Virus record (IMG/VR): IMGVR_UViG_3300035436_000036
DNA: 64,000 bases
Direction: 5' to 3' (one strand)
Source: a virus
Positions within the stretch are counted from its first letter, which is position 1. Each line of letters begins with the position of its first letter. Positions 2,709 to 60,948 of this stretch are shown here, piece by piece. The notes under the pieces are model-generated. The model worked only from the letters and a program-made list of their open reading frames with translations. It had not been told where the DNA came from and ran no database searches. The position numbers and the translations under genes were made by a program.

Positions 2709-2740
2709 GAGATAAATAAAAGATACAAGGAGATCAATAA

Positions 2741-3286: not shown

Positions 3287-3316
3287 GCGATATATAATAT
3301 TATAAGAAAGTGAAAC

Positions 3317-4840
3317 ATGCAGTTATTTGGCTTTGAAATTAAAAAGAAGATAGAAGACCAGGCACCCGTCTCGTTTGCTCCCAAGCAATCTGATGACGGG
3401 GCCATGGTCGTCCAGAGCGGCGGAGTCTATGGGACTTACGTCGATCTCGACGGTTCCATCAGAACAGAGACAGAGCTCGTTACTAGGTATCGAGAAATGG
3501 CTATGCATCCTGAGATCGAAACCGCTATCGACGATGTGGTGAACGAGGCTATTGTTGGCAACCCTGACAAGGAGCCTGTTGAGATCAACCTTGACGATCT
3601 TCAACAGCCAGATAAGATCAAAGCTCTAATCACCGAGGAATTCAAAAACATCCTCGGCCTGCTGCATTTCAATGAATACAGCTATGAGACATTCAGAAAG
3701 TGGTATGTTGACGGTAGACTATACTATCATGTGATCATCGACAACGCTAATCCGAGAGACGGGATCCAAGAGCTTCGCTACATCGATCCTAAGCACATCC
3801 GCAAGATTCGTGAGCAGAAGAAAAAGAAGACTGAGAACGGTGTTCCTGTAATCCAAGATGGTGCAGAGTATTACATCTATAGCGATAAGGGCTTCGTAAA
3901 GGCTCCTGGAGCTACTACTTCGAATGCTCAGGGCATCAAGATTGCTAAGGATTCAATCGTCAATGTGATGAGTGGAATGACCAATCCTAACGGAGACCTC
4001 GTTCTTTCTTATCTGCATAAAGCAATTAAGCCTCTAAACCAGCTTCGTTCGCTTGAAGATTCATTGGTCATCTATCGTATATCTCGTGCCCCTGAGCGTA
4101 GAATCTTCTACATCGACGTGGGCAACCTTCCTAAGATGAAGGCAGAGCAGTACGTTCGTGACATGATGACTCGCTTCAAGAACAAAGTTGTCTACAACTC
4201 TGACACTGGTGAGATCAGAGACGATCGTAAGTTTATGACGATGCTCGAAGACTTCTGGCTTCCACGTCGTGAAGGTGGTAAAGGAACGGAAATTACTACC
4301 CTGCCAGGTGGTCAGAACCTTAGCCAGATTGATGATATTGTGTACTTCCAGAAGAAGCTATACAAGTCACTGAATGTTCCGATCGGCAGACTGGAATCAG
4401 AGGCTGTATACAGCCTTGGTCGTTCGACAGAAATCTCCAGAGACGAAATCAAGTTTTCTAAGTTCGTAGAGCGTTTGAGAATGAGGTTCTCACAGATCTT
4501 CACAAAGATCCTAGAGCGTCAACTTGTCCTTAAGGGCATCGTTACGCTAGAAGAGTGGCCTGAGTTCGAGCGCGCAATTAGATACGACTACACTGTTGAT
4601 AACTACTTTGCAGAGCTGAAAGAAACCGAGATCCTACGTGACCGCGTTTCGATGCTCAGAGACATTGATGACTATGTTGGCAAGTATTATTCGAATGAGT
4701 GGGTTCGTAAGAACGTCCTTCATCAGACAGATGAAGAGATGAAAGAAATTAACAGTCAGGTTGACGCAGAGAAGGCCGTTGGAATCATCGAACCAGATGA
4801 TGAAGAGCAGGCCGCACAGACGCAACCTAGAGGAACATAA
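3317..4840 (+). CDS. gp20: Portal vertex protein gp20
   Basis: 507 aa ORF in the gp20 position of the T4 order 18-19-20-67-68-21-22-23; size close to T4 gp20 (524 aa). Confidence 0.75.
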   Translation: MQLFGFEIKKKIEDQAPVSFAPKQSDDGAMVVQSGGVYGTYVDLDGSIRTETELVTRYREMAMHPEIETAIDDVVNEAIVGNPDKEPVEINLDDLQQPDKIKALITEEFKNILGLLHFNEYSYETFRKWYVDGRLYYHVIIDNANPRDGIQELRYIDPKHIRKIREQKKKKTENGVPVIQDGAEYYIYSDKGFVKAPGATTSNAQGIKIAKDSIVNVMSGMTNPNGDLVLSYLHKAIKPLNQLRSLEDSLVIYRISRAPERRIFYIDVGNLPKMKAEQYVRDMMTRFKNKVVYNSDTGEIRDDRKFMTMLEDFWLPRREGGKGTEITTLPGGQNLSQIDDIVYFQKKLYKSLNVPIGRLESEAVYSLGRSTEISRDEIKFSKFVERLRMRFSQIFTKILERQLVLKGIVTLEEWPEFERAIRYDYTVDNYFAELKETEILRDRVSMLRDIDDYVGKYYSNEWVRKNVLHQTDEEMKEINSQVDAEKAVGIIEPDDEEQAAQTQPRGT

Positions 4841-4860
4841 ATAGTTAGAATGGAGTTTTT

Positions 4861-5157
4861 ATGACAGACTATACAACGGCAGACATTCTTAATTTTAGCG
4901 CGGCCTCGCAACCTTTGCGAGTTGCAGACGCTTTTGATTCTGTTCTACGTGCAAAGATCGAAGCTCAGATGGACGGTGTTCGTGCCAACTTCGAGCAAAG
5001 CGTCTTTGCGAGCGCTGACGAAGAAGAATTTGATCCACAGGAAGATGATTTAGACCTGGACGATGTTGATCTCGATGATGATCTTGACTTAGACGATGAC
5101 CTAGAAGATCTCGACGACTTAGACTTAGACGGGGACGACACCGATGAAGACGCTTAA
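4861..5157 (+). CDS. Small acidic prohead core protein (gp67-like); C-terminal DLDxDD low-complexity repeats
   Basis: Position after portal; extremely acidic C-terminus DDLDLDDVDLDDDLDLDDDLEDLDDLDLDGDDTDEDA. Confidence 0.4.
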   Translation: MTDYTTADILNFSAASQPLRVADAFDSVLRAKIEAQMDGVRANFEQSVFASADEEEFDPQEDDLDLDDVDLDDDLDLDDDLEDLDDLDLDGDDTDEDA

Positions 5158-5902
5158 ACAATTTGCTGAACAGACTGGCTATCGTAAGGTGAAATCGCCT
5201 GACGAGCAGCGTTTCGTTGACAAGCACGAAGTTGAAGTTAAGCAGGACCGTGCTGGCAACAAGGACGATGTGTTCAAGGCTACCAACATCAAGACCATCG
5301 AGCGCAAGAAAGAGCGCAAGGGCTACGATGCAGGAACCGACGAAGCTGTGTATGAAGCAATGGATGCTGCTGCTCGCTTCGATCACCATCACCAGCATGC
5401 CAAGGCTCTTCTCAAGTCGATCTCTCAGCATCTAAAGACTCATGCTACAGAAGCTGCTGCTTATAAAGATCACAAGGGTCGTAAAGGTCCGAATTGGGGT
5501 CACACTGGATCCATGGAGCATGTTGCAAGCCAGCTTAGCAACCTTCACGACCAGCTTGCTCGCACTGGTGAGTATTCGATGCACGAAGAAGTAGAGCTCG
5601 ACGAAAAGACTCTAACTCCTGCAGAGATGAAGAAGCGCGAAGAAGTAGCCAAGGCTATCAAGCGCGACAATCCAAAGATGCCAATGGGTAAGAAGATGGC
5701 CATTGCAACTGCGACAGCTAAGAAGGTTGCAGAAGATCTCGAAGCCGCTATCAGCGGCCTTTCACCTCGTCTTCAAGAAACAATGAAGACAGCATTCGAT
5801 AAGTTGCATGAAGACAACCAAGTCAAGTTTGCTGCTGCATGTGCCACAGAAGAAGGCCTCGAAAAGATGGTTGCCTTCGCTATCGAAAATAGAGGTGAAT
5901 AA
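5144..5902 (+). CDS. Head-module protein (gp68-like prohead core/scaffold?), His/Lys/Glu rich
   Basis: Position between gp67-like and gp21-like genes; no recognisable motif. Confidence 0.3.
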   Translation: MKTLKQFAEQTGYRKVKSPDEQRFVDKHEVEVKQDRAGNKDDVFKATNIKTIERKKERKGYDAGTDEAVYEAMDAAARFDHHHQHAKALLKSISQHLKTHATEAAAYKDHKGRKGPNWGHTGSMEHVASQLSNLHDQLARTGEYSMHEEVELDEKTLTPAEMKKREEVAKAIKRDNPKMPMGKKMAIATATAKKVAEDLEAAISGLSPRLQETMKTAFDKLHEDNQVKFAAACATEEGLEKMVAFAIENRGE

Positions 5903-6303
5903 TGGCTGCTGTAATCACATCAAACAAAAAGAACACCTCTCTAGTTGTACACGTTGCTTCTTCTAACAGTGGCAACATTATCGTTGCTGGCAACTCTTCG
6001 ACTACAAATGTCAACGCCACTAGCGTATGCGTAGCGGTTGGCGACGAAGTATTAACAGGCGCTTACATCACCCAAGCTGTTTGGGGCTGTGATGGTAATG
6101 GGCATATTCAGATCCTTCGTGGCGCAAACGTGGTAGCGGTATACGACTCAACAGGCCAACATGAATATGCTGGCTGTGGAATGCCTATCAACTTGTATCC
6201 AGCTGCTAACGTAGTTGTGAACCTAATTGGCTCAGCAAACAGCTTTATTACATTTGAGCTGCAAAAGACTGGCAATTTCGTATCTGAATACCAGCAGAAC
6301 TAA
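5902..6303 (+). CDS. Hypothetical head-module protein (Ser/Asn/Val-rich, 133 aa)
   Basis: ORF in late head operon; start overlaps previous stop (ATGG). Confidence 0.4.
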   Translation: MAAVITSNKKNTSLVVHVASSNSGNIIVAGNSSTTNVNATSVCVAVGDEVLTGAYITQAVWGCDGNGHIQILRGANVVAVYDSTGQHEYAGCGMPINLYPAANVVVNLIGSANSFITFELQKTGNFVSEYQQN

Positions 6304-6313
6304 GGATTAACCG

Positions 6314-6967
6314 ATGAAACTGATCACTGAGCTGAACGAGTCCATCAAGTACGTTACCGAAAAGACGGAAAGCGGCAAGAAGACTATGTACATTGAAGGT
6401 GTATTCCTTCAGTCGGAAATCAAGAACCGCAACGGCCGTGTATATCCTAAGGCAGTTCTCGAAAGAGAAGTGAATAGATACAACGAGCAGTTCGTTCAGA
6501 AAGGCCGCGCGTTCGGCGAGCTAGGACATCCAGATGGTCCTCAGATCAACCTCGATCGTATCTCTCACATTATCGAATCTCTAAAGCAAGACGGATCCAA
6601 CTTTATCGGCCGCGCTAAGATTACAGACACTCCTATGGGTAACATTGCCCGTGGTATTATTGAGTCGGGTGGCCAGCTAGGCGTATCGACTCGTGGTATG
6701 GGTTCTATCAAGTTAAATAAAGAAGGTGTGAATGAAGTTCAAGACGACTTCCACCTTGCGACAGCCGCAGACATTGTTGCCGATCCTTCGGCTCCGGATG
6801 CATTTGTAAACGGTATCATGGAAGGCGTAGAGTGGATCTGGGAAAACAATATGCTCATCGCTCACCATGCTAAACTACAGGTCGAGCAGGCAGTTCGCTC
6901 ACGCGATCTGGAGACCCAAAAGTTGAAAGTCTTCGAGAATTTCATTAACTCAATATCAAAAATCTAA
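6314..6967 (+). CDS. gp21: Prohead core protease gp21-like
   Basis: 217 aa (T4 gp21 212 aa) immediately upstream of scaffold and MCP genes; GELGHPDG and STRGMGS regions resemble the prohead protease family. Confidence 0.55.
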   Translation: MKLITELNESIKYVTEKTESGKKTMYIEGVFLQSEIKNRNGRVYPKAVLEREVNRYNEQFVQKGRAFGELGHPDGPQINLDRISHIIESLKQDGSNFIGRAKITDTPMGNIARGIIESGGQLGVSTRGMGSIKLNKEGVNEVQDDFHLATAADIVADPSAPDAFVNGIMEGVEWIWENNMLIAHHAKLQVEQAVRSRDLETQKLKVFENFINSISKI

Positions 6968-7016
6968 GTACAATAAATATACAACTAGATTAAATGTATC
7001 TAAAAGGAGTCAGAGA

Positions 7017-8024
7017 ATGGCAATTAAAGAATCATCTGAAATCGAAGAGAACGTAGTTCTCGACGAAACAGCTGCAGCCGACACACTGAAGCCAGGCGCT
7101 GGCTCAGTTGCTGGTGACGTTGGCAAGACAGAGCTTATGGCATCTGTCGTTGCTGCAATGGGCGGTATGTCGAAAGAAGAAATCAATAAGTTCCAGGCTG
7201 TGCTTGCTCAATATGGCAAGAACAAAACACCTGGTGCCGAAGACAAGTCAGCTGCTAACAAGGCATCAGTTGCTGCTAAGGGTGCAATGAAGGAAGACGT
7301 TGAAGAGCTTTTTGCCAACGACGATCTTTCCGAAGAGTTCCGCGAAAAGGCATCAACGCTTTTCGAAGCTGCTGTCAATGCACGCGTAGGCCTAGAAGCT
7401 GCTCGTCTTGAAGAAGAATTCGGAGCTAAGCTGGAAGAAACAGCTGCAGCAATCGAAGAAGAGCTTTCGTCAAAGGTCGACACATATCTCGATTACGTTG
7501 CTGAGCAATGGTTTGAAGATAACCAGATCGCTATCGAATCTTCATTGAAGGTTGAAGCCGCTGATAAGTTCATCGACGGTGTAAAAGCTCTCTTTGCAGA
7601 GCACATGGTAGAAGTTCCAGAAGAAACAGTAGACATGGTCGAGTCTCTCGAAGCACGTGTAGCTGAACTCGAAGGACAGCTGAATGAGGAAATCAACGAA
7701 AAGATTGAACTCACTAAGCTAGTTGAAGAAGCAGAAAAAGAAGCTATCTTTGACGAAGTTGCAGAAGGCCTAGCCGCTACTCAGGTAGAAAAGCTTCGCA
7801 CTCTTGCAGAAGGCCTAGAATACTCTGACGCAGACGCCTACCGCAGGAAGGTCGAACTGGTCAAGGAAAACTACTTCACAGAGAAGAAAGCAACTGCTTC
7901 TTCGCTAGTAGTTGAAGAAACGGCTGTTGGTTCGCTCGAAGAGCTAACTGAACAAACAAACGTAGTTATTGAAGCTGGCATGCAACAGTATGTTTCGGCA
8001 ATCGCAAAAACTACGAAGAAATAA
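7017..8024 (+). CDS. gp22: Prohead scaffolding protein gp22 (acidic, Ala/Glu-rich coiled coil)
   Basis: Composition and position directly upstream of major capsid gene. Confidence 0.7.
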   Translation: MAIKESSEIEENVVLDETAAADTLKPGAGSVAGDVGKTELMASVVAAMGGMSKEEINKFQAVLAQYGKNKTPGAEDKSAANKASVAAKGAMKEDVEELFANDDLSEEFREKASTLFEAAVNARVGLEAARLEEEFGAKLEETAAAIEEELSSKVDTYLDYVAEQWFEDNQIAIESSLKVEAADKFIDGVKALFAEHMVEVPEETVDMVESLEARVAELEGQLNEEINEKIELTKLVEEAEKEAIFDEVAEGLAATQVEKLRTLAEGLEYSDADAYRRKVELVKENYFTEKKATASSLVVEETAVGSLEELTEQTNVVIEAGMQQYVSAIAKTTKK

Positions 8025-8029
8025 GTTTT

Positions 8030-8037
8030 TATAAATA
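8030..8037 (+). promoter_or_regulatory. T4-type late promoter TATAAATA upstream of major capsid gene
   Basis: TATAAATA ~35 nt upstream of ATG 8072; RBS GGAGGG. Confidence 0.55.
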
Positions 8038-8071
8038 ATATACTAGAATAATCCATTTAGGAGGGATAAAA

Positions 8072-9391
8072 ATGCTAGCTGAGGAAGTACAAAACAAGTG
8101 GAAGCCTGTTCTAGAACACGCTGACCTTGATCCAATTAAAGACTCACATCGCCGTGCAGTGACAGCTCAGATTCTTGAGAACACAGAAGCTGCTCTTCGC
8201 GAATCAACTCAAACGTTTGGTGCTCAGAATCTTCTTGCTGAAGCCACACCAGTTAACGCAACTGGTTCAGCAGTTGACAACTTCGATCCAGTGCTTATCT
8301 CACTTGTTCGTCGTTCGATGCCAAACCTCGTAGCTTACGACATCTGCGGCGTTCAGCCAATGACAGGTCCAACTGGTCTTATCTTCGCAATGCGTGCTCG
8401 TTACGCAACGCAGGGTGGAACAGAAGCATTCTACGGCGAAGCCAACACAGGCTTCTCGGCAAACCCAGAAGGCAACACAACTGTCAACCTTCCTGGTTAC
8501 CGTAACGTTGGTACTGTTCCTGGTACTGCAAACAACGCTGAATCAAACACATACAACTATGTTCGTGGTGTTAACACAGCATTCGCAGAAGGTTGGGGCA
8601 ACTCATCCGTATCGATCCCAGAAATGGCATTCTCAATCGAGAAGGTTACTGTTACAGCTCGCTCACGCGCTCTGAAAGCAGAATACTCACTTGAGCTTGC
8701 ACAGGATCTGAAAGCAATTCACGGTCTTGACGCTGAGACAGAACTTGCAAACATTCTTTCGGCTGAAATCCTTTCGGAAATCAACCGTGAAGTTGTTCGC
8801 ACGATCAACGTCACAGCTGAGCGTGGTGCTTCGGAAGGCACAACTACAGCAGGTATCTTCGATCTTGACACCGATTCAAACGGCCGTTGGTCAGTTGAAA
8901 AGTTCAAGGGTCTTATGTTCCAGCTCGAGCGTGAAGCTAACCAGATCGCCAAGGGCACAAGACGTGGTAAGGGTAACATCCTTATCTGTTCGTCAGACGT
9001 TGCATCTGCACTTCAGATGGCTGGCGTTCTCGATTATGCGCCTGCGCTTAACTCGAACAACCTGAACGTAGACGACACAGGCAATACTTTTGCTGGTGTT
9101 CTCAACGGTCGTATGCGCGTTTACATCGATCCATATACCACAGGTAACTACCTGACAGTTGGTTATAAGGGTTCGTCAGCGTTCGACGCCGGTCTGTTCT
9201 ACTGCCCATACGTTCCACTACAAATGGTTCGTGCAGTCGATCAAGACAACTTCCAGCCAAAGATTGGCTTCAAGACCCGCTACGGCATGGTCGCGAATCC
9301 ATTCGCAGACGGTACTTCAGAAGGTCTTGGTGCTCTTACCAAGGATTCGAACAAGTACTATCGTCGTGTGCTTGTTAACAACCTTATGTAA
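8072..9391 (+). CDS. gp23: Major capsid protein gp23
   Basis: 439 aa ORF in gp23 position after gp21/gp22; followed by strong rho-independent terminator; typical highly expressed codon/RBS context. Confidence 0.8.
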   Translation: MLAEEVQNKWKPVLEHADLDPIKDSHRRAVTAQILENTEAALRESTQTFGAQNLLAEATPVNATGSAVDNFDPVLISLVRRSMPNLVAYDICGVQPMTGPTGLIFAMRARYATQGGTEAFYGEANTGFSANPEGNTTVNLPGYRNVGTVPGTANNAESNTYNYVRGVNTAFAEGWGNSSVSIPEMAFSIEKVTVTARSRALKAEYSLELAQDLKAIHGLDAETELANILSAEILSEINREVVRTINVTAERGASEGTTTAGIFDLDTDSNGRWSVEKFKGLMFQLEREANQIAKGTRRGKGNILICSSDVASALQMAGVLDYAPALNSNNLNVDDTGNTFAGVLNGRMRVYIDPYTTGNYLTVGYKGSSAFDAGLFYCPYVPLQMVRAVDQDNFQPKIGFKTRYGMVANPFADGTSEGLGALTKDSNKYYRRVLVNNLM

Positions 9392-11963: not shown

Positions 11964-12319
11964 GTATTATTACTATATTATTGGCTTCGGGAGAAGAACT
12001 TGTGGCTGACTACATCGATCATGATGATATGCAGATACGAGTACGTCAACCACTACGTATCGAGTATGCAGAAAGAGATAACGATGTCTACACAAGACTT
12101 GCTCGTTTCTTGTCTCAGGAAGATGGCAAAAGAACTATAATCTACATGCGGCATGTTGTTGCTACTGCTGAATGCCCGCAGAAAACTGTTGACTATTATA
12201 CCAAAGCAGTGGATAAGTATTATAGTGATAGTTTAAACACCCCAGAAGAAGATTCGCAGGGTGGTATCACTACCGAAGAGATTTTATCGTTGATCAGTGG
12301 AAGAATCAAACTACAATGA
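11960..12319 (+). CDS. Hypothetical protein (UvsW.1 position)
   Basis: 119 aa ORF, ATGA overlap with uvsW stop. Confidence 0.45.
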   Translation: MSIITILLASGEELVADYIDHDDMQIRVRQPLRIEYAERDNDVYTRLARFLSQEDGKRTIIYMRHVVATAECPQKTVDYYTKAVDKYYSDSLNTPEEDSQGGITTEEILSLISGRIKLQ

Positions 12320-12858
12320 TTAAGAAAAAGCAAAGAGCACATTACGTAGACAACAAGCGTCTCTACGGCGAGATGATTCACTTCATCAACAGCTGCAAAG
12401 CTGCACAACTCGAAGAAGAGCGCCGTCCTAAGATTCCTGAGTACATTGGAGAGTGTATCTTTAAGATCGCTACCAAGTTGGCTACCAAGCCCAACTTCTC
12501 GTCCTATACGTACAAGGATGAGATGATCTCTGATGGCATCGAAGTCTGCATTAGATACCTGCACAACTTTGATCCTGATAAGTCCAGCAATCCTTTTGCA
12601 TACTTCACTCAGATCATCTACTATGCTTTCCTTCAGAGGATCCAGAAAGAGAAGAAGCAGGCCTACATCAAGGCCAAGTCGTTCGAGAACTCTGCTATCA
12701 TGAATGAGCTGGTAGACGATCCGACTGGCAAGTTCTTCAGTCAGTATCACACAATCGACTCTGATAAGCTAGCAGAGCTAGAGAGTAAGATGAAGCCTAA
12801 AGCAAAGGCAAAAGCAAAGTTGGTAGGCATTGAGTCTATCCTTGGAGATGCTGATTAA
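12316..12858 (+). CDS. gp55: Late-transcription sigma factor gp55
   Basis: Similarity to T4 gp55 (HNFDPDKSSNPFAYFTQIIYYAFLQRIQKEKK vs [32 protein letters not shown]); gene order 55-47-46 as in T4. Confidence 0.9.
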   Translation: MIKKKQRAHYVDNKRLYGEMIHFINSCKAAQLEEERRPKIPEYIGECIFKIATKLATKPNFSSYTYKDEMISDGIEVCIRYLHNFDPDKSSNPFAYFTQIIYYAFLQRIQKEKKQAYIKAKSFENSAIMNELVDDPTGKFFSQYHTIDSDKLAELESKMKPKAKAKAKLVGIESILGDAD

Positions 12859-16715: not shown

Positions 16716-17276
16716 ATGTATATGAGCAGTAAATCACCTGAGTTTTTTAGTCTGTTTAGAATCACTAACTTAAAGACCGGACAAACATATGAGGCGCGTG
16801 GATACCGCAACACACTTGTGCTAGCAGGCTTAGCTGCATCTACCCCCGCAGCGCAGATGCGCAACAGCAAAAAATGGAAACTCGAAGAAGTTGCTCCGCC
16901 TGAGAAGTGGGACCAAGCAGCCTATAGGAGAGAGCTCTATAAAAAGACATCGGATCGTTATAGGCTATATGAGGCTAAAAAGCTAGCCCAAGATCCCCTG
17001 TATGAGAAGCGGAAACAGGCTAAACTTCGTGGTTGGAAAAACTATGATGGCTCCCAGTTCACTGCTGAACAACACGAGCGTATGTTAATTCAAAGCTGTG
17101 ATATTTGTGGTACAGAAAGTGATATTGTTGTTGACCATTGTCACGAAACAATGTATGTTCGGGGTAGCTTGTGTCGCAAGTGTAACCTAGCTCTCGGACA
17201 CGCTAACGATGATGTAGGAGTTTTAAAATCTATGATTAATTATATTGAAAGACACAGGAACAAGATATATGACTAA
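16716..17276 (+). CDS. HNH/Endonuclease VII-family nuclease (probable freestanding homing endonuclease)
   Basis: C-terminal motif VVDHCHETMYVRGSLCRKCNLALGH matches the EndoVII/HNH signature DHDH..G.VRGLLC..CN..LG. Confidence 0.65.
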   Translation: MYMSSKSPEFFSLFRITNLKTGQTYEARGYRNTLVLAGLAASTPAAQMRNSKKWKLEEVAPPEKWDQAAYRRELYKKTSDRYRLYEAKKLAQDPLYEKRKQAKLRGWKNYDGSQFTAEQHERMLIQSCDICGTESDIVVDHCHETMYVRGSLCRKCNLALGHANDDVGVLKSMINYIERHRNKIYD

Positions 17277-18228
17277 GAAGCATGCATTCAGCGAAATCTT
17301 CTATTCAATTCAAGGTGAGGGATTTTACTGCGGCGTGCCAACCGCGTGGTTGAGGTTCTTCCTCTGCAACCTGCAGTGCAATGGGTTTGGACAGAAGGAT
17401 CCGACAGATGAGTCGACGTACGTTCTTCCTTACAAGGATTTTGATCCTACGTCTGTTAATCGAATTGAGGATCTTCCGGTTTGGTCACATGGTTGTGACT
17501 CGTCTTACTCTTGGTCATCGAAGTTTAAGCATCTGCAGTATAAGAAGACTGCAGCAGAGATCTGTGATCAGATTCAAGCTGAACTCACGAACGAGTGGAA
17601 CCCTACAGGAACGTTCCATCACCCATTGAGCCATGTTGAACAGCATATGTGTTTCACTGGTGGTGAGCCTTTGATGAAACATGGCAAGCAAGCTGTTGTA
17701 GAGATCATCGATGAGTTCAAGATGCGCATGGGTGGCATGTTAGCTATTGACAAGCTCAAGGGCAGCAATCAACCAGAGTTCATCACATTCGAAACAAACG
17801 GCACACAGGAGCTGACAGATGACTTCGTTAATTATTTTGGCAATCGTGGTTGTTACGATGGCGAACTTTTCTTCTCGGTATCACCTAAGCTCTGGACAGT
17901 CGCCGGAGAGCGCCCAGAGAAAGCTATCCAGGCGGACGTTGTTAAGAAGTATGATTGGATCTCCAAAGGTCGAGGACAACTCAAGTTCGTCGTAGGTGAT
18001 AAGCAAGAGCAGTGGGATGAAGTAGATCATGTTGTGCAGCAGATGCGTAAAGCTGGTGTCACATACCCTGTATGGATCATGCCAGTAGGTGCCACAGAAG
18101 AAGCTCAGACTGGTGAGCTAGAAGGATATGCATCGGCTGGTAAGGTCGCTGAGATGGCGTTCAAACGAGGTTATAATGTGTCTGCCCGAGTGCATGTGTA
18201 TCTCTGGGGCAATTTGATTGGAGTATAA
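17269..18228 (+). CDS. queE: QueE-like radical-SAM 7-carboxy-7-deazaguanine synthase
   Basis: IFYSIQGEGFYCGVPTAWLRFFLCNLQC (QueE pattern F.SIQGEG..G.P..F.R..CNL.C with Cx11Cx3C cluster motif) and GGEPL motif; start moved to ATG with RBS AGGAACAAG. Confidence 0.6.
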   Translation: MTKKHAFSEIFYSIQGEGFYCGVPTAWLRFFLCNLQCNGFGQKDPTDESTYVLPYKDFDPTSVNRIEDLPVWSHGCDSSYSWSSKFKHLQYKKTAAEICDQIQAELTNEWNPTGTFHHPLSHVEQHMCFTGGEPLMKHGKQAVVEIIDEFKMRMGGMLAIDKLKGSNQPEFITFETNGTQELTDDFVNYFGNRGCYDGELFFSVSPKLWTVAGERPEKAIQADVVKKYDWISKGRGQLKFVVGDKQEQWDEVDHVVQQMRKAGVTYPVWIMPVGATEEAQTGELEGYASAGKVAEMAFKRGYNVSARVHVYLWGNLIGV

Positions 18229-24638: not shown

Positions 24639-25292
24639 ATGATGCTTGACGTGAAAACTATCCAGACGCTTAAGGCGTTTTCGATGATCAACCCTTCGCT
24701 TCTGTTTAAGCCTGGCAATGTGATCAAGACGATCTCTCCTGCCAAGACTATTCTAGCCAAGGCTACTGTTCCGGCTACATTCGACAGAGAGTTTGCTATC
24801 TATGACCTCATGAGGTTCCTGGGTGCATACTCGATGTTCGATGAAGCCGAACTAGACTTCCATGAGCGATCTGTGAAGATCGGTTCTGGTAAGGAGAAGA
24901 TCAACTACCTGTATGCAGACCCTGCAGTCATCGTAGTTGCTCCTGATAAGGAGTTGGTCGTCGAGAACCCTGTAGTAGAGTTCGACCTGACCTCTGACTT
25001 GCTTCAACGTACTCTCAAAGCATTGAGTATGATTGGAGCTCCAGAGGTTGCAGTCACTGGAGAAGATGGTGTAGTCTATCTTGAAGCCATTGACTCAAAG
25101 AACAGCTCGTGCTCCACATACCGTGTGGAAGTCGGACAGACCGACAAAGCATTCCGCTTAATTATGACAGCCGACAAGTTAAAACTGTTGACTTGTGACT
25201 ATAAAGTGGCTATAACGGATAGGTTCGCTCACCTCAAGGGCCAGGACATTGAGTACTGGATTGTCCTTGAAGCGCATTCGACCGTTGGCTAA
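24639..25292 (+). CDS. gp45: Sliding clamp gp45
   Basis: Similarity to T4 gp45 (FAIYDLMRFLG vs VAIYDLNGFLG, ADPAVIVVAPDKELV vs ADPSTVVAPNKPIPF); order 45-44-62-regA as in T4. Confidence 0.8.
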   Translation: MMLDVKTIQTLKAFSMINPSLLFKPGNVIKTISPAKTILAKATVPATFDREFAIYDLMRFLGAYSMFDEAELDFHERSVKIGSGKEKINYLYADPAVIVVAPDKELVVENPVVEFDLTSDLLQRTLKALSMIGAPEVAVTGEDGVVYLEAIDSKNSSCSTYRVEVGQTDKAFRLIMTADKLKLLTCDYKVAITDRFAHLKGQDIEYWIVLEAHSTVG

Positions 25293-25311
25293 AACTCCAA
25301 TAACATAAATA

Positions 25312-25337
25312 GGCCTATACTTTTAAAACTATAGGCC
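25312..25337 (+). promoter_or_regulatory. Hairpin (GGCCTATA / TATAGGCC) sequestering the RBS of the downstream GIY-YIG gene, preceded by late-promoter-like CATAAATA (25303-25310)
   Basis: 8-bp inverted repeat ending 3 nt before ATG 25341. Confidence 0.5.
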
Positions 25338-25340
25338 AAT

Positions 25341-25880
25341 ATGATATACTTAATCACCAACAAAGTAAACGGTAAACGTTACATAGGTAAGACTTCTCAA
25401 ACTATCGAAAAGAGATGGTATCAGCACTGTAAGAACGCAGAGTATGGTCACAACACCTATCTATACCGAGCCATTAGAAAATATGGTAAGGATAGCTTCG
25501 ACGTTGCTAAGCTATGTGATGGATTGAATGAGGAAGAGATCTTAATGATTGAAACACATTCACCTGAATATAACATGACTTTGGGTGGCGATGGTGGCGA
25601 CACTTCTACAAGTCCTAACTACAAGTTGGCTTTGTTAAACAGAGATATGTCGGGAGAGAATAATCCCAACTATGGAAAGAAAGGTCCATCCAGCCCTAAC
25701 TATGGTAAACGGAGAACCGAAGACCAGAAGCAAAATCATCGCGATGGCTACAAGGGGAAGCGTGTACCGGTTAGAGTAGATGGTGTTGATTATGAATCTG
25801 TCTCAAGAGCAGCTAAACTCTTGGGACGCAGTGAAAGATATGTGAGGCTACATGACGAACTTAATGAGTGGAAATACTAA
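25341..25880 (+). mobile_element. Freestanding GIY-YIG homing endonuclease (I-TevI/Seg-like) inserted between gp45 and gp44
   Basis: MIYLITNKVNGKRYIGKT GIY-YIG motif, R and E residues, NUMOD-like GENNPNYGKKGPSSPNYGKR repeats. Confidence 0.8.
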
Positions 25881-26811
25881 CGAATTCTTATGGTGTGAGC
25901 GCTACAGACCGAAGACCATCAGTGACACTATCCTTCCTCAAGAACTGAAGGCTACGTTCCAACAGTTCGTTGATCAGAAGAACATTCCGAATCTCATCCT
26001 GGCAGGGAGTGCGGGCGTAGGTAAGACTACTGTCGCTCGTGCAATGCTCGAAGAGCTCGGCTGTGACTATCTCGTCATCAATGGATCCATGAACGGAAAC
26101 ATTGACACTCTACGTAACGAGATCCTTGAGTTTGCTTCTGCTATGTCACTTAGTGGTGGTCGCAAGTATGTTATCCTTGATGAGGCTGACTACTTGAACG
26201 CAAACTCAACACAGCCGGCTCTTCGTAACTTCATGGAAGAGTTCTCCAAGAACTGTGGGTTCATCCTTACCTGTAACTTTGTCAATCGTATCATCGAGCC
26301 TCTTCACTCTCGTTGTTCGGTTGTTGAGTTCAAGTTCTCGAAGAAGGAGCTGCCTGAGCTTGCCAAGCAGATGATGGTTCGTTCTACTACCATCCTCGAT
26401 ACCGAAGGTGTGCCTTATGATAAGGCTGCTGTGGCAGAATTGCTCAAGAAGCATCTGCCCGACTGGCGACGTCTCCTTAACGAGCTACAGCGCTACTCTG
26501 CTACTGGTAAGATCGACTCGGGTATCCTTGTCAATACGACTCAGGAGGCTATTAAGGCGCTTCTAGACGCTATGAAGGACAAGAACTTCAGTCAAGTACG
26601 TAAGTGGGTGGGAGAGCACTCAGACACCGAGACTACGATGCTATACCGTCAGTTCTATGACAATGCAGCATCATACTTCCAGCCTCAGTCTATCCCCCAA
26701 CTCGTTCTGACTCTTGCCAAGTACCAGCATCAGGCTGCGTTCGTGGCTGACCATGAGATCAACAATGCTGCGTGCATGCTCGAGATCATGATCGACTGTC
26801 AGTTCAAGTAA
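25852..26811 (+). CDS. gp44: Clamp loader large subunit gp44
   Basis: 319 aa = T4 gp44 length; Walker A GSAGVGKTT, DEAD-box VILDEAD, SRC motif PLHSRC. Confidence 0.9.
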   Translation: MTNLMSGNTNEFLWCERYRPKTISDTILPQELKATFQQFVDQKNIPNLILAGSAGVGKTTVARAMLEELGCDYLVINGSMNGNIDTLRNEILEFASAMSLSGGRKYVILDEADYLNANSTQPALRNFMEEFSKNCGFILTCNFVNRIIEPLHSRCSVVEFKFSKKELPELAKQMMVRSTTILDTEGVPYDKAAVAELLKKHLPDWRRLLNELQRYSATGKIDSGILVNTTQEAIKALLDAMKDKNFSQVRKWVGEHSDTETTMLYRQFYDNAASYFQPQSIPQLVLTLAKYQHQAAFVADHEINNAACMLEIMIDCQFK

Positions 26812-27939: not shown

Positions 27940-28016
27940 GCGCCGTTAGCTCATCTGGATAGAGCGCGAAACTTCTAATTTTGAGGCAGCAGGTTCGAGT
28001 CCTGCACGGCGCACCA
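27940..28016 (+). tRNA. tRNA-Arg (anticodon TCT)
   Basis: Cloverleaf folded by eye; T-loop TTCGAGT, CCA encoded. Confidence 0.7.
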
Positions 28017-28021
28017 TATAC

Positions 28022-28096
28022 ACTCCCGTAGCTCAACGGTAGAGCTGACCGCTCATAACGGTTAGGTTAGGGGTTCGAATCCCTTCGGGAGTACCA
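28022..28096 (+). tRNA. tRNA-Met/Ile2 (anticodon CAT)
   Basis: Cloverleaf, T-loop TTCGAAT, CCA encoded. Confidence 0.7.
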
Positions 28097-28097
28097 T

Positions 28098-28175
28098 GTC
28101 ACGGTGGCAGAGTGGTCCAATGCACAGGTCTGCAAAACCTGAAAGCCGCGGGTTCGAATCCCGCCCGTGACTCCA
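28098..28175 (+). tRNA. tRNA-Cys (anticodon GCA)
   Basis: Cloverleaf, T-loop TTCGAAT, CCA encoded. Confidence 0.6.
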
Positions 28176-32409: not shown

Positions 32410-32438
32410 GTTGACTTAAATTGGAAAAAGAGTATAAA
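32410..32438 (+). promoter_or_regulatory. Promoter for tRNA cluster 2 (TTGACT N17 TATAAA)
   Basis: ~10 nt upstream of tRNA-Asp 5' end. Confidence 0.6.
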
Positions 32439-32447
32439 TAAAACTCT

Positions 32448-32523
32448 GGACTCGTAGCTCAATTGGGAGAGCACCGCACTGTCACTGCGGAGGTAGTGGG
32501 ATCGAAACCCATCGAGTTCGCCA
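32448..32523 (+). tRNA. tRNA-Asp (GTC)
   Basis: Cloverleaf by eye. Confidence 0.7.
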
Positions 32524-32529
32524 GTTTGT

Positions 32530-32604
32530 GTCGGTGTGATGTTAATGGTAGCATGACGGTCTCCAAAACCGTTCGTCAAGGTTCGAATCCTTGCACCGAT
32601 GCCA
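32530..32604 (+). tRNA. tRNA-Trp (CCA)
   Basis: Cloverleaf by eye. Confidence 0.65.
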
Positions 32605-32629
32605 GACTTGTTCTTTCTCATTGTTGTTC

Positions 32630-32705
32630 GCGTCTGTAGCTCAGTTGGCAGAGCACTCCCCTGATAAGGGAGAGGTCGCAGGGTCAGGACCTGCCAGACG
32701 CACCA
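32630..32705 (+). tRNA. tRNA-Ile (GAT)
   Basis: Cloverleaf by eye; atypical T-loop GTCAGGA. Confidence 0.6.
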
Positions 32706-32761
32706 TTATGGGGTTGCTACCTAATAAGCACGCGAGGGGCCACGGTTAGCTCCTCAACATT

Positions 32762-32851
32762 GGAAGCGTGTCAGAGTGGTCGATTGATCTGGTCTTGAAA
32801 ACCAGCGTAGGCGCGAGTCTACCGTGGGTTCGAATCCCACCGCTTCCTCCA
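32762..32851 (+). tRNA. tRNA-Ser (TGA), type II
   Basis: Long variable arm, T-loop TTCGAAT. Confidence 0.7.
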
Positions 32852-32852
32852 T

Positions 32853-32927
32853 GCGGACGTAGCTCAGTGGTAGAGCTTCTCGTTGCCAACGAGAAGGTCG
32901 TGGGTTCGAATCCCATCGTCCGCTCCA
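32853..32927 (+). tRNA. tRNA-Gly (GCC)
   Basis: Cloverleaf by eye. Confidence 0.7.
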
Positions 32928-32929
32928 AT

Positions 32930-33004
32930 GGCCCGGTCGTCTAATGGCTAGGACACCGCTCTTTCACAGCGGAGAAGAGGGATCGAAACCCTTTCGGGCT
33001 ACCA
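32930..33004 (+). tRNA. tRNA-Glu (TTC)
   Basis: Cloverleaf by eye. Confidence 0.65.
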
Positions 33005-33010
33005 GATTTA

Positions 33011-33098
33011 GGAACGTGGGCAGGACGGTAATGCAACGCACTGCTAATGCGTACAACCTGTAATGGGTTGACAGGGTTCGACTCCCTGACGTTCCGCC
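33011..33098 (+). tRNA. tRNA-Ser (GCT), type II
   Basis: Long variable arm, T-loop TTCGACT. Confidence 0.7.
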
Positions 33099-33269
33099 AA
33101 GTTTATGGAGTCGTGAACACGGTAATGGTCGATCGCAGCGTACAGGGGTGTTCGGGGGCGATTGGCAACTCCGCCAAGATGAGGGAAACGCTAGGGCAAT
33201 GTCAGACGGTGCCTGCGTAGCGGGTGTCGTGAGGTGCTGGGTAACCGGCGGGGTCTGACACGAGTTTAT
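33099..33269 (+). ncRNA. Unassigned structured RNA segment inside tRNA operon (possible stable small RNA like T4 species 1/2 RNAs, or degenerate tRNAs)
   Basis: ~170 nt between tRNA-Ser and tRNA-His; GTCAGAC...GTCTGAC inverted repeat; both halves start with AGTTTATGG like tRNA leaders; no convincing cloverleaf. Confidence 0.3.
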
Positions 33270-33345
33270 GGTGGTCGAGGTGTTAATGGATACATGCTGG
33301 ATTGTGAATCCGGAGTTGCGGGCTCGATACCCGTCGATCACCCCA
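33270..33345 (+). tRNA. tRNA-His (GTG) with G-1
   Basis: Extra 5' G paired to discriminator C; T-loop CTCGATA. Confidence 0.65.
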
Positions 33346-33346
33346 T

Positions 33347-33422
33347 GGGGATATAGTCCAACGGCAGAGACAGGGCACTTAAAATGCCTCCAGCGTGAGT
33401 TCGAATCTCACTATCCCTACCA
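33347..33422 (+). tRNA. tRNA-like, anticodon TAA, with short (type I) variable arm
   Basis: Good acceptor/T arms (GTGAG TTCGAAT CTCAC), anticodon loop CTTAAAA; UAA normally belongs to type II tRNA-Leu. Confidence 0.5.
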
Positions 33423-33531
33423 GAATTTAGTAGACAGTGGGGCCTTCAGAAATGATTGCTACTAATAGCTCACCTTAATGGTCGGTACACCACGGTAAGG
33501 AGCAACCCACCAAACTTTTTTAAAATAACTG

Positions 33532-33570
33532 TTGCCTTTTTCGAAAATATGTCCTATAAGGATATATAAG
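33532..33570 (+). promoter_or_regulatory. Early promoter cassette copy (TTGCCT variant)
   Basis: ACTGTTGCCTTTTTCGAAAATATGTCCTATAAGGATATATAAG. Confidence 0.5.
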
Positions 33571-33591
33571 ATGAAGAAAAAGGAATTGGTT

Positions 33592-33795
33592 ATGGAAGTT
33601 TTTGTTTTGATGGGTGCGATGGATCACGATGCACATTACGTTCTTGGTGTTTATGCTTCTGAACAAGAAGCTGTAGATGCCTTGGGTGTTTACCTTCGTG
33701 ACCTTGATGAATCTTGGCATGATCGTTATTATGTTGATCGCCGTGTGCTCGGTGCACATGCGGAATACGATTCCGATCCTTTTCGACATCTGTAA
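33592..33795 (+). CDS. Hypothetical protein (67 aa) between tRNA clusters
   Basis: ATG after AAAAAGGAATTGGTT leader (same pattern as 30583 gene). Confidence 0.4.
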   Translation: MEVFVLMGAMDHDAHYVLGVYASEQEAVDALGVYLRDLDESWHDRYYVDRRVLGAHAEYDSDPFRHL

Positions 33796-33802
33796 GTTTA
33801 AT

Positions 33803-33878
33803 GGACGATTAGCTCAGTCGGTAGAGCGCGGGACTCTTAATCCTTAGGTCATAGGTTCGAATCCTATATCGTCTACCA
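33803..33878 (+). tRNA. tRNA-Lys (CTT)
   Basis: Cloverleaf by eye. Confidence 0.65.
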
Positions 33879-34093
33879 AGTTCTATGTTGGGTATCACAT
33901 AGGTGTGTCCTGAGGGAGTCATGACCCAAGGGAGAATGGAGAAAATCTCATATAGGATGCATAATGCATAACCATCTTATGATTATGAGAGGATGCGATA
34001 ATCCCCGCCCGACGCCAAATTATCCGTACCATTTTATAGGAGGTTGTATATGTCACTGCGGGAAGCAAGAAGCTAGGTAAAAATTTTAAAAAG

Positions 34094-34357
34094 ATGATTA
34101 CTCTGTATGAGTATTTCGGTAAAGAGTGTGGTGGTCTAGATTGGAGCGATAGTGCTCTCTATGATCTATACGTATTCGAGTCTACTGGTAAAGGTAGCAT
34201 AAAGCCGAATAACGGATATGCATATGGCAAACACACTATAGATATAACAATCTCTATGTGGAAAGAGGACTTAGATAAGACCCTCTGGCTACATGAATTA
34301 TATCAAGATCCTAACCTACCAGATTGGTGGTTGGATAAAGTTTTTAAGGGTCGGTAA
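34094..34357 (+). CDS. Hypothetical protein (87 aa)
   Basis: ORF between tRNAs; W-rich C-terminus. Confidence 0.4.
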   Translation: MITLYEYFGKECGGLDWSDSALYDLYVFESTGKGSIKPNNGYAYGKHTIDITISMWKEDLDKTLWLHELYQDPNLPDWWLDKVFKGR

Positions 34358-34432
34358 AGCCGGTGGCTCCGGCAGTCAGACTGTAAATCTGATCCGTTCG
34401 CGGGGGAGGATCGATACCTCACTGACCCACCA
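34348..34432 (+). tRNA. tRNA-Tyr (GTA), type II
   Basis: Anticodon stem TCAGA/TCTGA, loop CTGTAAA, long variable arm; 5' end overlaps stop of upstream ORF. Confidence 0.6.
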
Positions 34433-34440
34433 AGTTTTAA

Positions 34441-34516
34441 TGCCCTTTGGTGTAATTGGCAACACGTCTGATTTTGATTCAGAAGAGTCCAGGTTCGAGC
34501 CCTGGGAGGGCATCCA
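34441..34516 (+). tRNA. tRNA-Gln (TTG)
   Basis: Cloverleaf by eye. Confidence 0.7.
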
Positions 34517-34525
34517 AAAATAAAT

Positions 34526-34558
34526 GTTGACTTATATCTAAAAATGAGATATATAATA
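34526..34558 (+). promoter_or_regulatory. Promoter internal to tRNA cluster 3 (TTGACT ... TATATAAT)
   Basis: Upstream of tRNA-Pro. Confidence 0.5.
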
Positions 34559-34567
34559 TACTAGTAA

Positions 34568-34643
34568 CGGGAAGTAGCTCAGGTGGGAGAGCGCGTGGTT
34601 TGGGACCACGAGGTCGCAGGTTCGAGCCCTGTCTTCCCGACCA
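34568..34643 (+). tRNA. tRNA-Pro (TGG)
   Basis: Cloverleaf by eye. Confidence 0.7.
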
Positions 34644-34647
34644 TTTT

Positions 34648-34723
<76 letters not shown>

Positions 34724-34730
34724 GAATAAA

Positions 34731-34804
34731 GCGGGCTTGGCGTAGAGATAACGTACCTGGCTTCCACCCAGGGGTCAAGGGTTTGATTCCCTTAGTCCGC
34801 ACCA
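34731..34804 (+). tRNA. tRNA-Gly (TCC)
   Basis: Cloverleaf by eye. Confidence 0.7.
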
Positions 34805-34810
34805 GAATAC

Positions 34811-34885
34811 GGCACAGTAGCTCAGTGGTAGAGCGACGGTCTCATACGCCGTCAGCCGGTGGTTCGAATCCATCCTGTGTCACCA
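34811..34885 (+). tRNA. tRNA-Met/Ile2 (CAT), second copy
   Basis: Cloverleaf by eye. Confidence 0.7.
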
Positions 34886-35033
34886 TTTAGGAATGTGAAT
34901 ATGAGAAGCGAGTCTGCAGAATGTGTGATGTATGTACCCGACACTCCTTTAAACAGGGCTGCGTTTACAGACGAAACGGTTTTGGCAGAGATATATAAAG
35001 TTTCGAATATTAAAATTGTGTTTAAAGATAATG

Positions 35034-35108
35034 GGGGATTAGCTCAGTTGGGAGAGCGATTGCTTTGCAAGCAATAGGTCAACGGTTCGATCCCGTTATC
35101 CTCCACCA
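35034..35108 (+). tRNA. tRNA-Ala (TGC)
   Basis: Cloverleaf by eye; G3-U70 present (GGGGGAT...ATCCTCC). Confidence 0.7.
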
Positions 35109-35397
35109 AGTTTTGTAGCGCCTAAGGCATAGCCCGAAGGATAACCAAAGGTTCACCGTATTGGGGGCTCGCTACAAAAAAATATAGACCACCTCGGCTG
35201 AACCCGTGAAGTGATAAAGACATTGTTGCAACATTGTTTTTATCTGGGAAGATTGCAACGTCCGGAAGTAAGCAATCAAGGCACACTGTAGGTGGTCACT
35301 CACATTGACTCCGACCTCTGGTTTTAAGTCCCGACCTGAAATGACAGGCGGTAACATATGTGTCCTAGGAAACGCATTTGTTTGGGAGTTTTTATTT

Positions 35398-35473
35398 GCC
35401 TTTGTAGCTCAGTTGGTAGAGCAGTGGATTGAAGATCCACGTGTCGGGGGTTCGACTCCCTCCAAAGGCACCA
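35398..35473 (+). tRNA. tRNA-Phe (GAA)
   Basis: Cloverleaf by eye. Confidence 0.7.
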
Positions 35474-35592
35474 CAAGTTTGGGACTAAGCGGTGTGAATA
35501 GGGAACCCGCTGAATATGGACTGCTAGTAAAACTGTTAAAACTCACCTATGAGAAGCAAGGCATAAGATCCCAAAACATTATGCTCCAATGG

Positions 35593-35675
35593 TGGAATGG
35601 TAGACACGCTAGTCTTAGGAACTAGTGCCTAGTGCGTGGGGGTTCGAGTCCCTCTTGGAGTACCAAGTTTAATGC
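35593..35675 (+). tRNA. tRNA-Leu (TAG), type II
   Basis: Long variable arm, discriminator A. Confidence 0.7.
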
Positions 35676-35683
35676 CGGATTAG

Positions 35684-35758
35684 CTCAGTGGTAGAGCGCC
35701 TCGTTTACACCGAGGATGTCGGGAGTTCGACCCTCTCATCCGGTACCACGCCCTCGTA
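35684..35758 (+). tRNA. tRNA-Val (TAC)
   Basis: Cloverleaf by eye. Confidence 0.7.
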
Positions 35759-35759
35759 G

Positions 35760-35836
35760 CTCAACTGGATAGAGCTCTTGATTACGAATCAAAAGGTTGC
35801 AGGCTCGAATCCTGCCGAGGGCACCAATTAACTGTT
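35760..35836 (+). tRNA. tRNA-Arg (ACG)
   Basis: Cloverleaf by eye. Confidence 0.65.
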
Positions 35837-35844
35837 GACATTAA

Positions 35845-35873
35845 CAGCTATAAGTACTATAAAGAATTATGAA
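35845..35873 (+). promoter_or_regulatory. Promoter (TTGACA N17 TATAAA) upstream of tRNA-Asn
   Basis: sigma70-like spacing. Confidence 0.5.
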
Positions 35874-35879
35874 GTTTAT

Positions 35880-35954
35880 TCCCCAGTAGCTCAGTGGTAG
35901 AGCAGGTGACTGTTAATCACCTGGCCGGTGGTTCGAACCCATCCTGGGGAGCCA
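35880..35954 (+). tRNA. tRNA-Asn (GTT)
   Basis: Cloverleaf by eye. Confidence 0.7.
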
Positions 35955-60881: not shown

Positions 60882-60948
60882 GATCTTTCCTTGCTGCTTA
60901 TTTATAATTTTAACTACTACAAGCACGGTAAGAAAACACATAGGCTTT

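Follow-up and report, generated by a model that had tools for sequence, protein, structure and literature searches.

A putative mobile GIY-YIG endonuclease cassette with a predicted late promoter and hairpin between genes 45 and 44 of a T4-like phage

The combination of a late promoter with a hairpin that controls translation has been described for the homing endonuclease genes of I-TevI, of I-TevII and of I-TevIII, for segB and for mobE of phage Aeh1, as well as for the T4 late genes e, soc, 25 and 26 (PMC2988022). In I-TevI, which is encoded in the intron of T4 td, the hairpin blocks initiation on early and middle read-through RNA, and the late transcripts lack its 5' part (PMC2988022); protection of intron folding has been proposed as the rationale for this control (PMC2988022). 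Here we analyse an apparently similar arrangement in IMG/VR virus record IMGVR_UViG_3300035436_000036, a stretch of 64,000 nucleotides (the window) in which a free-standing endonuclease gene lies between the genes for gp45, the sliding clamp, and gp44, the clamp loader. The locus is best explained, with a probability of roughly 0.7, as a mobile GIY-YIG cassette that brings its own late promoter, a hairpin switch and new start signals for gene 44.

The open reading frame (ORF) at 25341-25880 on the + strand encodes a protein of 179 residues, which a preliminary description of this DNA had taken for a GIY-YIG homing endonuclease inserted between gp45 and gp44. Profile searches and sequence alignment bear this out. 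Residues 2-72 match the GIY-YIG catalytic domain (PF01541, E = 3.5e-10; score 40.5 bits, cutoff 22.6), with the signature motif reading IYLITN...RYIGKT, and two NUMOD3-like repeats follow at residues 104-125 (21.4-22.8 bits against the Pfam cutoff of 20.4). Similarity of residues 144-179 to the I-TevI DNA-binding domain (I-TevI_DNA-bd, PF20987) is weak, scoring 14.4 bits where 27 is the cutoff, and matches to helix-turn-helix and NUMOD1 domains are likewise below threshold. When the protein is aligned to the catalytic domain of I-TevI (1MK0/1LN0), Tyr3, Tyr14, Arg25, His29 and His37 correspond with Tyr6, Tyr17, Arg27, His31 and His40; the Arg25 column holds Ala in 1LN0, the R27A mutant chain of I-TevI. 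The HMMER alignment ends before Glu75 and Asn90 of I-TevI, for which Glu65 and Asn78 (EEEILMIETHSPEYN) fit by manual alignment, and the EE...YN pattern is invariant across all endonuclease homologues. Both flanking genes are assigned, gp45 at 24639-25292 (+ strand; Pfam gp45-slide_C, 1.6e-9; TAA stop ending at 25292) and gp44 at 25852-26811 (+ strand; Pfam Gp44_lid and AAA), and the gene order is gp45, endonuclease ORF, gp44, gp62, regA. These data support the identification of 25341-25880 as a free-standing homing endonuclease gene of the I-TevI/Seg type, whose product would be expected to cleave DNA.

Related loci were collected from IMG/VR and from scans of JGI and ENA metagenomes, and are labelled with L-numbers. 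A gp44 query against IMG/VR gave 80 loci; an endonuclease query gave L084, L085 and L086 from IMG/VR, and L164, L165, L166, L168 and L169 from the JGI and ENA metagenomes. These eight homologues and the window copy are referred to below as the nine elements. The endonuclease ORF is intact in every homologue, and the ratio of non-synonymous to synonymous substitution rates (dN/dS) between the window and L164 is ∼0.09. Two homologues, L168 (884-1400) and L169 (872-1400), share the N-terminal GIY-YIG half, the promoter, the hairpin and the site, and have an unrelated C-terminal half (...GPKPNISRSKMKKLLSS...GITWSEI), a difference that looks like a swap of DNA-binding domains.

The preliminary description had proposed a comparison of the 45-44 junction in related phages, and this shows an insertion rather than an ancestral gene with the same synteny everywhere. 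The closest relatives of the window at this locus, L004, L005 and L006, are 85-88% identical in amino acid sequence in gp45, in gp44 and in the gene preceding gp45, and have no endonuclease gene; their gp45-gp44 spacer is only ∼29 nucleotides (nt) long (TAAGCCCCCCTTTATTATGGAGTTATATT) and is followed directly by ATG GAA GAG TTT CTC TGG. Endonucleases, by comparison, are 94% identical in amino acid sequence between the window and L164, 84% for L165, 72% for L166, 71% for L168, 65% for L169 and 63-67% for L084, L085 and L086, even though gp45 of the homologue phages, where present, is only 37-55% identical to that of the window (53-55% for L164 and L165, L164 itself at 55%). At the nucleotide level the window and L164 agree at 94% of positions in the promoter and hairpin and at 93% in the ORF; over the initial 108 nt of the gp44 sequence common to both the figure is 83%, and in gp45 no similarity is detectable. 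The gene is thus polymorphic in presence at a single locus, and its phylogeny is incongruent with that of the host genes. Near-identical copies in divergent backbones, together with absence from relatives at 85-88% identity, bear the mark of a mobile element that is active or was so until recently.

The boundaries of the element are defined on both sides. Homology to L004 and L006 in blastn stops at 25292-25296 (for L004 at the gp45 stop codon, 25292) and picks up again in gp44, and codon-level homology to the endonuclease-less alleles that start M-E-E-F-L-W (L004-L008) resumes at E-F-L-W, at 25882. In blastn comparisons between elements, similarity with L164, L165 and L168 starts exactly with the first base of ATAAATA, at 25305, and this argues that the promoter and the hairpin belong to the mobile element. 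The 12 nt in between, AACTCCAATAAC at 25293-25304 (+ strand), are found neither in endonuclease-less relatives nor in other elements, and so mark where the insert has its left edge. We conclude from these alignments that the ∼29-nt gp45-gp44 spacer, together with the first codons of gene 44, has given way to the cassette at 25305-25880. The endonuclease lies immediately 5' of gp44 at all eight loci with a visible downstream flank, the window counted. The upstream flank varies: gp45 adjoins directly in L085 and L168, gp45 and then an extra small ORF precede the element in L164, L165 and L084, and no recognisable gp45 is present in L166 and L169.

Immediately upstream of the ORF is a late-promoter-like box, CATAAATA (of the NATAAATA type), at 25304-25311 on the + strand, taken as positions -13 to -6. 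The preliminary description had recognised this box next to the stem, but its coordinates (25303-25310) were one base off. The sequence TAAATAGG is invariant in all nine elements. Across the window ATAAATA occurs 22 times against 7.6 expected, a threefold enrichment reached in none of 100 shuffles, and its intergenic copies lie 18-56 nt upstream of structural and other genes. Such boxes precede the genes for tail sheath and major capsid protein (TATAAATA in both), the tail tube gene and a tube-like ORF at 9484 (GATAAATA), the scaffold gene (AATAAATA) and an ORF at 4861 (again CATAAATA, at 4836-4843). As their first base differs, the first position appears to be free, as in NATAAATA. That motif is known from cyanomyoviruses (PMC2984593), and T4 late promoters have the -13 to -6 geometry with A tolerated at -13 (PMC2988020). 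Both gp55, the late sigma factor (12316-12858), and gp45 are encoded in the window. By T4 geometry the late start is predicted at 25317 on the + strand, 6 nt past the box.

This predicted start falls within the 5' arm of a hairpin that lies directly between the box and the initiation codon. The 5' arm GGCCTATA (25312-25319, beginning 20 nt past the gp45 stop codon), a 10-nt loop CTTTTAAAAC (25320-25329) and the 3' arm TATAGGCC (25330-25337) are followed by an AAT spacer (25338-25340) and the ATG at 25341, all on the + strand, so that an 8-bp stem ends 3 nt before the ATG, just as first described, and its 3' arm covers positions -11 to -4 relative to the AUG. The minimum free energy fold includes this exact stem, with z = -2.7 against shuffled sequences. 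The same order of box, stem and ATG is found upstream of all eight homologues. There is no spacing at all between ATAAATA and the stem in any of the nine elements, and the 3' arm always ends 0-4 nt before the ATG, with 10-21 nt between the arms.

The arms themselves vary in a way that preserves their pairing. They read GGTCTATA/TATAGGCC in L164 and L165, with U·G wobble pairing, GGACTATA/TATAGTCC in L085 and L166, GGTCTATA/TATAGACC in L168, GGAACATA/TATGTTCC in L086, AGGACTA/TAGTCCT in L084 and GGGAT/ATCCC in L169. Across the alignment of the nine elements 97.2% of cells are paired, compared with 21-46% in controls with the partners displaced by 1-3 columns; both sides have changed in three of the eight pairs, and columns 20:48 show five pair types (AU, UG, CG, GC and UA). 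RNAalifold returns the same helix. The covariation score is 0.34 against 0.085 in shuffles, none of 500 of which reach 0.34, although the nine elements are related and these statistics overstate their independence.

An inverted repeat of this kind might act as DNA, as an operator for autorepression by the endonuclease, rather than as an RNA hairpin that blocks translation. I-TevI does bind an operator overlapping its own late promoter (PMC2988022), and the repeat described here directly adjoins the promoter box. The best ungapped match of the hairpin region to the gp44 5' region of endonuclease-less alleles, 14/20, moreover falls on the candidate target codons discussed below. This match is equalled, however, by 51 of 300 shuffles (p ∼0.17), and an I-TevI-like operator that resembles the homing site and lies over the late promoter has no significant match in the endonuclease-less 45-44 region. 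The U·G wobbles of L164 and L165 would be mismatches in a DNA palindrome, an arm spacing of 10-21 nt is awkward for a dimeric site, and GIY-YIG endonucleases of this type bind asymmetric sites as monomers (PMC2988022). The wobble pairs and the variable loop therefore favour an RNA structure, and we consider an operator unlikely.

The geometry of box and stem suggests how the RNA structure could be switched. For RNAs that start in gp45, the computed cost of opening positions -20 to +13 relative to the AUG comes to 12.7-13.7 kcal/mol, and it falls to 2.1-2.2 kcal/mol for RNAs starting at 25316-25319; in an RNA that begins at ∼25317 only three A-U pairs of the stem are left and the GC half is gone. 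The ORF has the same orientation as the 45-44-62-regA series, of which the downstream gene 44 must be expressed early, and a terminator scan of the gp45-to-ORF interval found no terminator-like site. The covariation, the invariant junction, the boxes at late genes, the presence of gp55 and the drop in opening cost together support the I-TevI-like logic of late promoter and hairpin that the preliminary description had proposed, with the late start as predicted above.

The position of the hairpin, 20 nt past the gp45 stop codon, could also suit a terminator or a protective 3' stem of the gene 45 mRNA, with ATAAATA serving as a plain late promoter for the endonuclease and gene 44 and with no switch at all; some endonuclease-less relatives (L008) do carry an unrelated GC-rich hairpin in their 45-44 spacer. 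There is, however, no U-tract after the stem, the scan calls no terminator here, and the closest of the endonuclease-less relatives lack the hairpin. It moves instead with the endonuclease into unrelated upstream backgrounds, homology beginning at 25305, and in all nine elements its 3' arm is held at 0-4 nt from the endonuclease AUG. A role in the gene 45 transcript thus seems very unlikely, and a hairpin that acts on endonuclease translation is the better account of its position.

Several features of the promoter and stem nevertheless weigh against such a switch. The box has C at -13, although this position is variable in this phage, and is followed directly by GGCC, where T4 promoters and the other late promoters of the window are AT-rich; this GC-rich segment may make the promoter weak. 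The local fold is modest, at about -10 to -13 kcal/mol, and at 12.9 kcal/mol this start region is only 13th in predicted opening cost among the 88 genes of the window (mean 9.8 ± 4.3). No consensus Shine-Dalgarno (SD) sequence lies inside the stem, the only SD-like triplet of the 3' arm being AGG at 25333-25335, and in L085, L166 and L168 the 3' arm has no SD-like sequence. Perfect 8-bp stems with loops of 3-12 nt are also expected by chance ∼10 times per 64 kb (64,000 x 10 x 4^-8).

That last number, with the unexceptional occlusion energy, would allow the arrangement to be no more than a chance palindrome beside an AT-rich octamer upstream of an ORF. We regard this as extremely improbable, given that box, stem and AUG recur with compensatory changes in all nine elements, whose proteins are 63-94% identical. 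Since the opening energy is within one standard deviation of that of the window genes, the case for a hairpin switch rests on conservation, covariation and geometry and not on stability, although a stable structure does cover the initiation region (8-bp stem, covariation, ∼13 kcal/mol). The earlier term, a hairpin occluding the ribosome-binding site, is correct in so far as a conserved stem covers the initiation region, from -11 to -4, but beyond AGG there is no defined site for it to hide. With no real SD in the stem, the hairpin would more probably block the landing zone of the 30S subunit on an AU-rich leader.

At its 3' end the cassette also supplies the start of gene 44. The SD of gene 44, GAGG at 25844-25847 on the + strand, lies within the endonuclease codons ...Y-V-R-L..., and GAGGCTACATGA, with this SD, is also found in L164 and L085. 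The conserved His-Asp codons in R-L-H-D-E, a motif at the C-terminus of the endonuclease, create the gene 44 ATG at 25852; this start gives a 29-nt overlap with the end of the ORF and places the first 9-10 gp44 codons inside it. The initiation region is embedded in the same way in L164, L165, L166, L084 and L085. The result is a gp44 N-terminus ∼10 residues longer than the M-E-E-F-L-W start of endonuclease-less alleles, and a start region that is among the most open of the window (5.9 kcal/mol, rank 79/88). A separate observation concerns eight endonuclease-less loci, L004 (3957-3991), L006, L007, L008, L009, L010, L017 and L038, which have a conserved AU-rich motif at the gp44 start (TTATTATGGAG..TATATTATG or near variants). 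It could be a site of translational control of gene 44, RegA being encoded just downstream, and the cassette substitutes an unrelated initiation region for it.

Embedding of this kind raises the possibility that a former homing endonuclease, now domesticated or in decay, has lost the ability to home and is retained only for the sake of the gene 44 start, with a promoter and hairpin that merely limit toxicity. The protein is short (179 residues, compared with 245 in I-TevI), its C-terminal DNA-binding similarity is below threshold, and an SD and start codon within the ORF's 3' end penalise deletion. The same argument for retention has been made for the promoters that T4 seg and mob genes carry within them (PMC2988022). 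On the other hand, the catalytic motifs are intact and conserved in all homologues, and strong purifying selection (dN/dS ∼0.09) extends over the whole ORF and not the 3' end alone. Near-identical copies in divergent backbones and a sporadic distribution at the locus point in addition to recent movement. We therefore think domestication improbable and favour an element that is, or recently was, mobile.

Downstream of the overlap, gp44 itself differs between alleles with and without the endonuclease. Of 63 unique endonuclease-less alleles, 54 have the canonical WVEKYRP, which none of the eight endonuclease-bearing ones has (Fisher p = 2.3e-6, uncorrected for phylogeny). The latter show variants such as WCERYRP, WVEAYRP, WTEAYRP, WTEKYRP, WCEKYRP and WCEAYRP; the Arg codon is changed from CGY to AGR in five of the eight. 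In the window the recoded W-C-E-R-Y-R codons, in place of W-V-E-K-Y-R, lie at 25891-25908 (+ strand). These codons, 4-9 of gp44, are a candidate for the target and immunity site of the endonuclease, in which case the target would lie in or near TGGGTNGARAARTAYCGYCC and the TGGTGTGAGCGCTACAGACC allele would be resistant. Two points tell against this. The recoding could be a hitch-hiking polymorphism that was co-converted with the cassette, and T4 free-standing endonucleases often cleave well away from their own genes, at distances of hundreds to thousands of bp (PMC2988022).

Taken together, the data suggest a cassette of four parts: a gp55-type box, a hairpin, the endonuclease ORF and, at the 3' end, a replacement SD, start codon and ∼10-codon extension for gene 44. 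Early in infection, read-through RNA from gene 45 would hold both arms, the hairpin would form and the endonuclease AUG would be blocked to ribosomes, which could still load at the open gene 44 start on the same RNA. Late in infection, RNA polymerase with gp55 would start ∼6 nt past the box, near 25317 and within the 5' arm, giving an RNA that lacks the four G-C pairs; its AU-rich leader would be open and the endonuclease would be translated. The enzyme would then cut the genomes of those co-infecting relatives that lack the endonuclease gene, probably within or close to the conserved 5' end of gene 44, and repair of the double-strand break would copy the cassette into the cut genome.

A more far-reaching version of this scheme, which we put forward tentatively and at somewhat less than even odds, is that the cassette is a plug-in module, with its own promoter and silencer, that overwrites the initiation region of gene 44 and protects its carrier through the recoding of gp44. 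With the SD and AUG of gene 44 inside the endonuclease gene, loss of the element would kill clamp-loader expression. If this is true, the target lies only ∼10-30 bp from the insertion point, far closer than is typical for T4 free-standing enzymes, and the C-terminal swaps of L168 and L169 would be natural retargeting experiments.

Comparison of the 80 gp44 loci identifies the 45-44 junction as a recurrent insertion hotspot within this clade. The gap between the two genes ranges from ∼30 nt to 2.6 kb, and the cargo is unrelated between loci. Hypervariable gaps are present in L012, L013, L018, L023, L028, L029, L037, L042, L050, L063, L066, L081, L082 and L083. The cargo includes small Cys-rich ORFs of 77-136 residues, an ORF with a DRGH motif in L012 that resembles a non-specific nuclease, and in L028 an ORF that is MetK-like by motif, together with probable tRNA genes. 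The gap ORF of L066 and L082 (183-189 residues, GIYTIY...LYVGES) was considered as another GIY-YIG protein and is not claimed as such, having no Pfam match. The same gap in L072 (4448-4903, - strand), L074 and L078 contains a GIY-YIG/NUMOD3 gene that is 44% identical and runs in the opposite orientation; it also has TATAAATA and a hairpin upstream, and the adjoining gp44 reads FIWTEKYRP. The preliminary description had called the clamp/clamp-loader junction a classic homing site; this overstates the literature, as none of the 15 endonuclease genes of T4 is at 45/44 (Table 1, PMC2988022).

Related arrangements of promoter and hairpin are seen at other endonuclease genes. A second homing-endonuclease-like gene in the window, at 60213-60881 on the - strand, encodes 222 residues (MIYLYVKQH...; PHROG 'homing endonuclease' 2.6e-11, NUMOD3 6e-8) and has TATAAATA upstream, at 60899-60906. 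In the predicted structure (within 60870-60975, z = -3.15) the SD of this gene, AAGGAAAG, pairs with UUUUCUU upstream of the box. Late transcripts would lack this sequestering strand, by an analogous logic, and the cost of opening the start region is only average (10.4 kcal/mol, rank 30/88). Among distant GIY-YIG homologues with 29-34% amino acid identity, L213, L219 and L199 appear to have converged on this design: the TATAAATA of L213 is in the loop of a 17-bp hairpin that ends 3 nt before the ATG, and in L219 and L199 the box and following bases form the 5' arm, with an SD, GGAGG, in the 3' arm.

The window as a whole is that of a T4-like myovirus. Genes for tail sheath, tail tube, portal, scaffold and major capsid protein lie at 159-9391, and UvsY, a UvsW-like helicase, gp47 and gp46 are also encoded. 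The closest GenBank proteins to its gp44 are those of Stenotrophomonas phage DLP6 (61% identity) and Methylophilales phage Melnitz (59%). The only match to the 45-endonuclease-44 segment in a nucleotide search of GenBank phages is to part of DLP6 gp44 (73%), so that there is no close isolate, and none of 50,697 GenBank phage records has an endonuclease homologue above 37% identity. The 24 tRNA genes of the window, all on the + strand, form two clusters, at 27940-28175 and 32448-35954, and ATAAATA at 32434-32440 is directly 5' of the first tRNA of the large cluster. A 186-residue ORF at 16716-17276 matches endonuclease VII families in its C-terminal part only (1.7e-22), and its start region is predicted to be highly structured (16.5 kcal/mol, rank 5/88); gp49 is one possible identity, and an EndoVII-motif homing endonuclease like F-CphI another. 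The ORF that follows, at 17269-18228, encodes a QueE-like radical SAM protein, a hint of 7-deazaguanine DNA modification.

The regulatory logic and the homing paradigm are already established, and the present case is a clean example that introduces no new principle and leaves current understanding unchanged. What it adds is an environmental lineage of GIY-YIG homing endonucleases that are free-standing and lie at a site outside those listed for T4 endonucleases, with a switch of the T4 late-promoter and hairpin type that is apparently carried within the mobile unit itself and for which the support is natural covariation, not mutagenesis. The system is also compact and testable, comprising a cassette of ∼590 bp, an empty site in relatives at 85-88% identity and a specific candidate target in gene 44. 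It could be useful for studying how a selfish nuclease inserts beside essential replication genes without harm.

Comparison with I-TevI shows a common GIY-YIG domain with the conserved Tyr, Tyr, Arg, His and His residues, NUMOD3 and a weak C-terminal similarity, and the geometry of hairpin and late start is alike, the start being predicted for the window gene. I-TevI is, however, intron-encoded, whereas the window gene is free-standing and shorter (179 residues), with no recognisable Zn-finger linker, no consensus SD in its stem and no significant operator-like copy of the target over its promoter; the intron-folding rationale cannot apply to it. It also resembles T4 segB and mobE of Aeromonas phage Aeh1, which are likewise free-standing genes, lie within a polycistronic early or middle unit, as the window gene probably does, and have a hairpin over the initiation region with the late promoter within or beside it (PMC2988022). 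Those genes differ in site, being found in the tRNA region or at nrdA rather than at 45/44, and mobE encodes an HNH enzyme. The window element differs further in that its 5' arm starts at the very base after the box, and in that its support comes from environmental covariation and not from experiment. A final parallel is with T4 segG, segA, segE, mobB and mobC, whose coding regions carry signals of the essential gene downstream, a feature that disfavours their loss (PMC2988022). The same holds here, except that the embedded signals are promoters in the T4 seg and mob genes, whereas in the window cassette they are the SD, the start codon and ∼10 N-terminal codons of gene 44.

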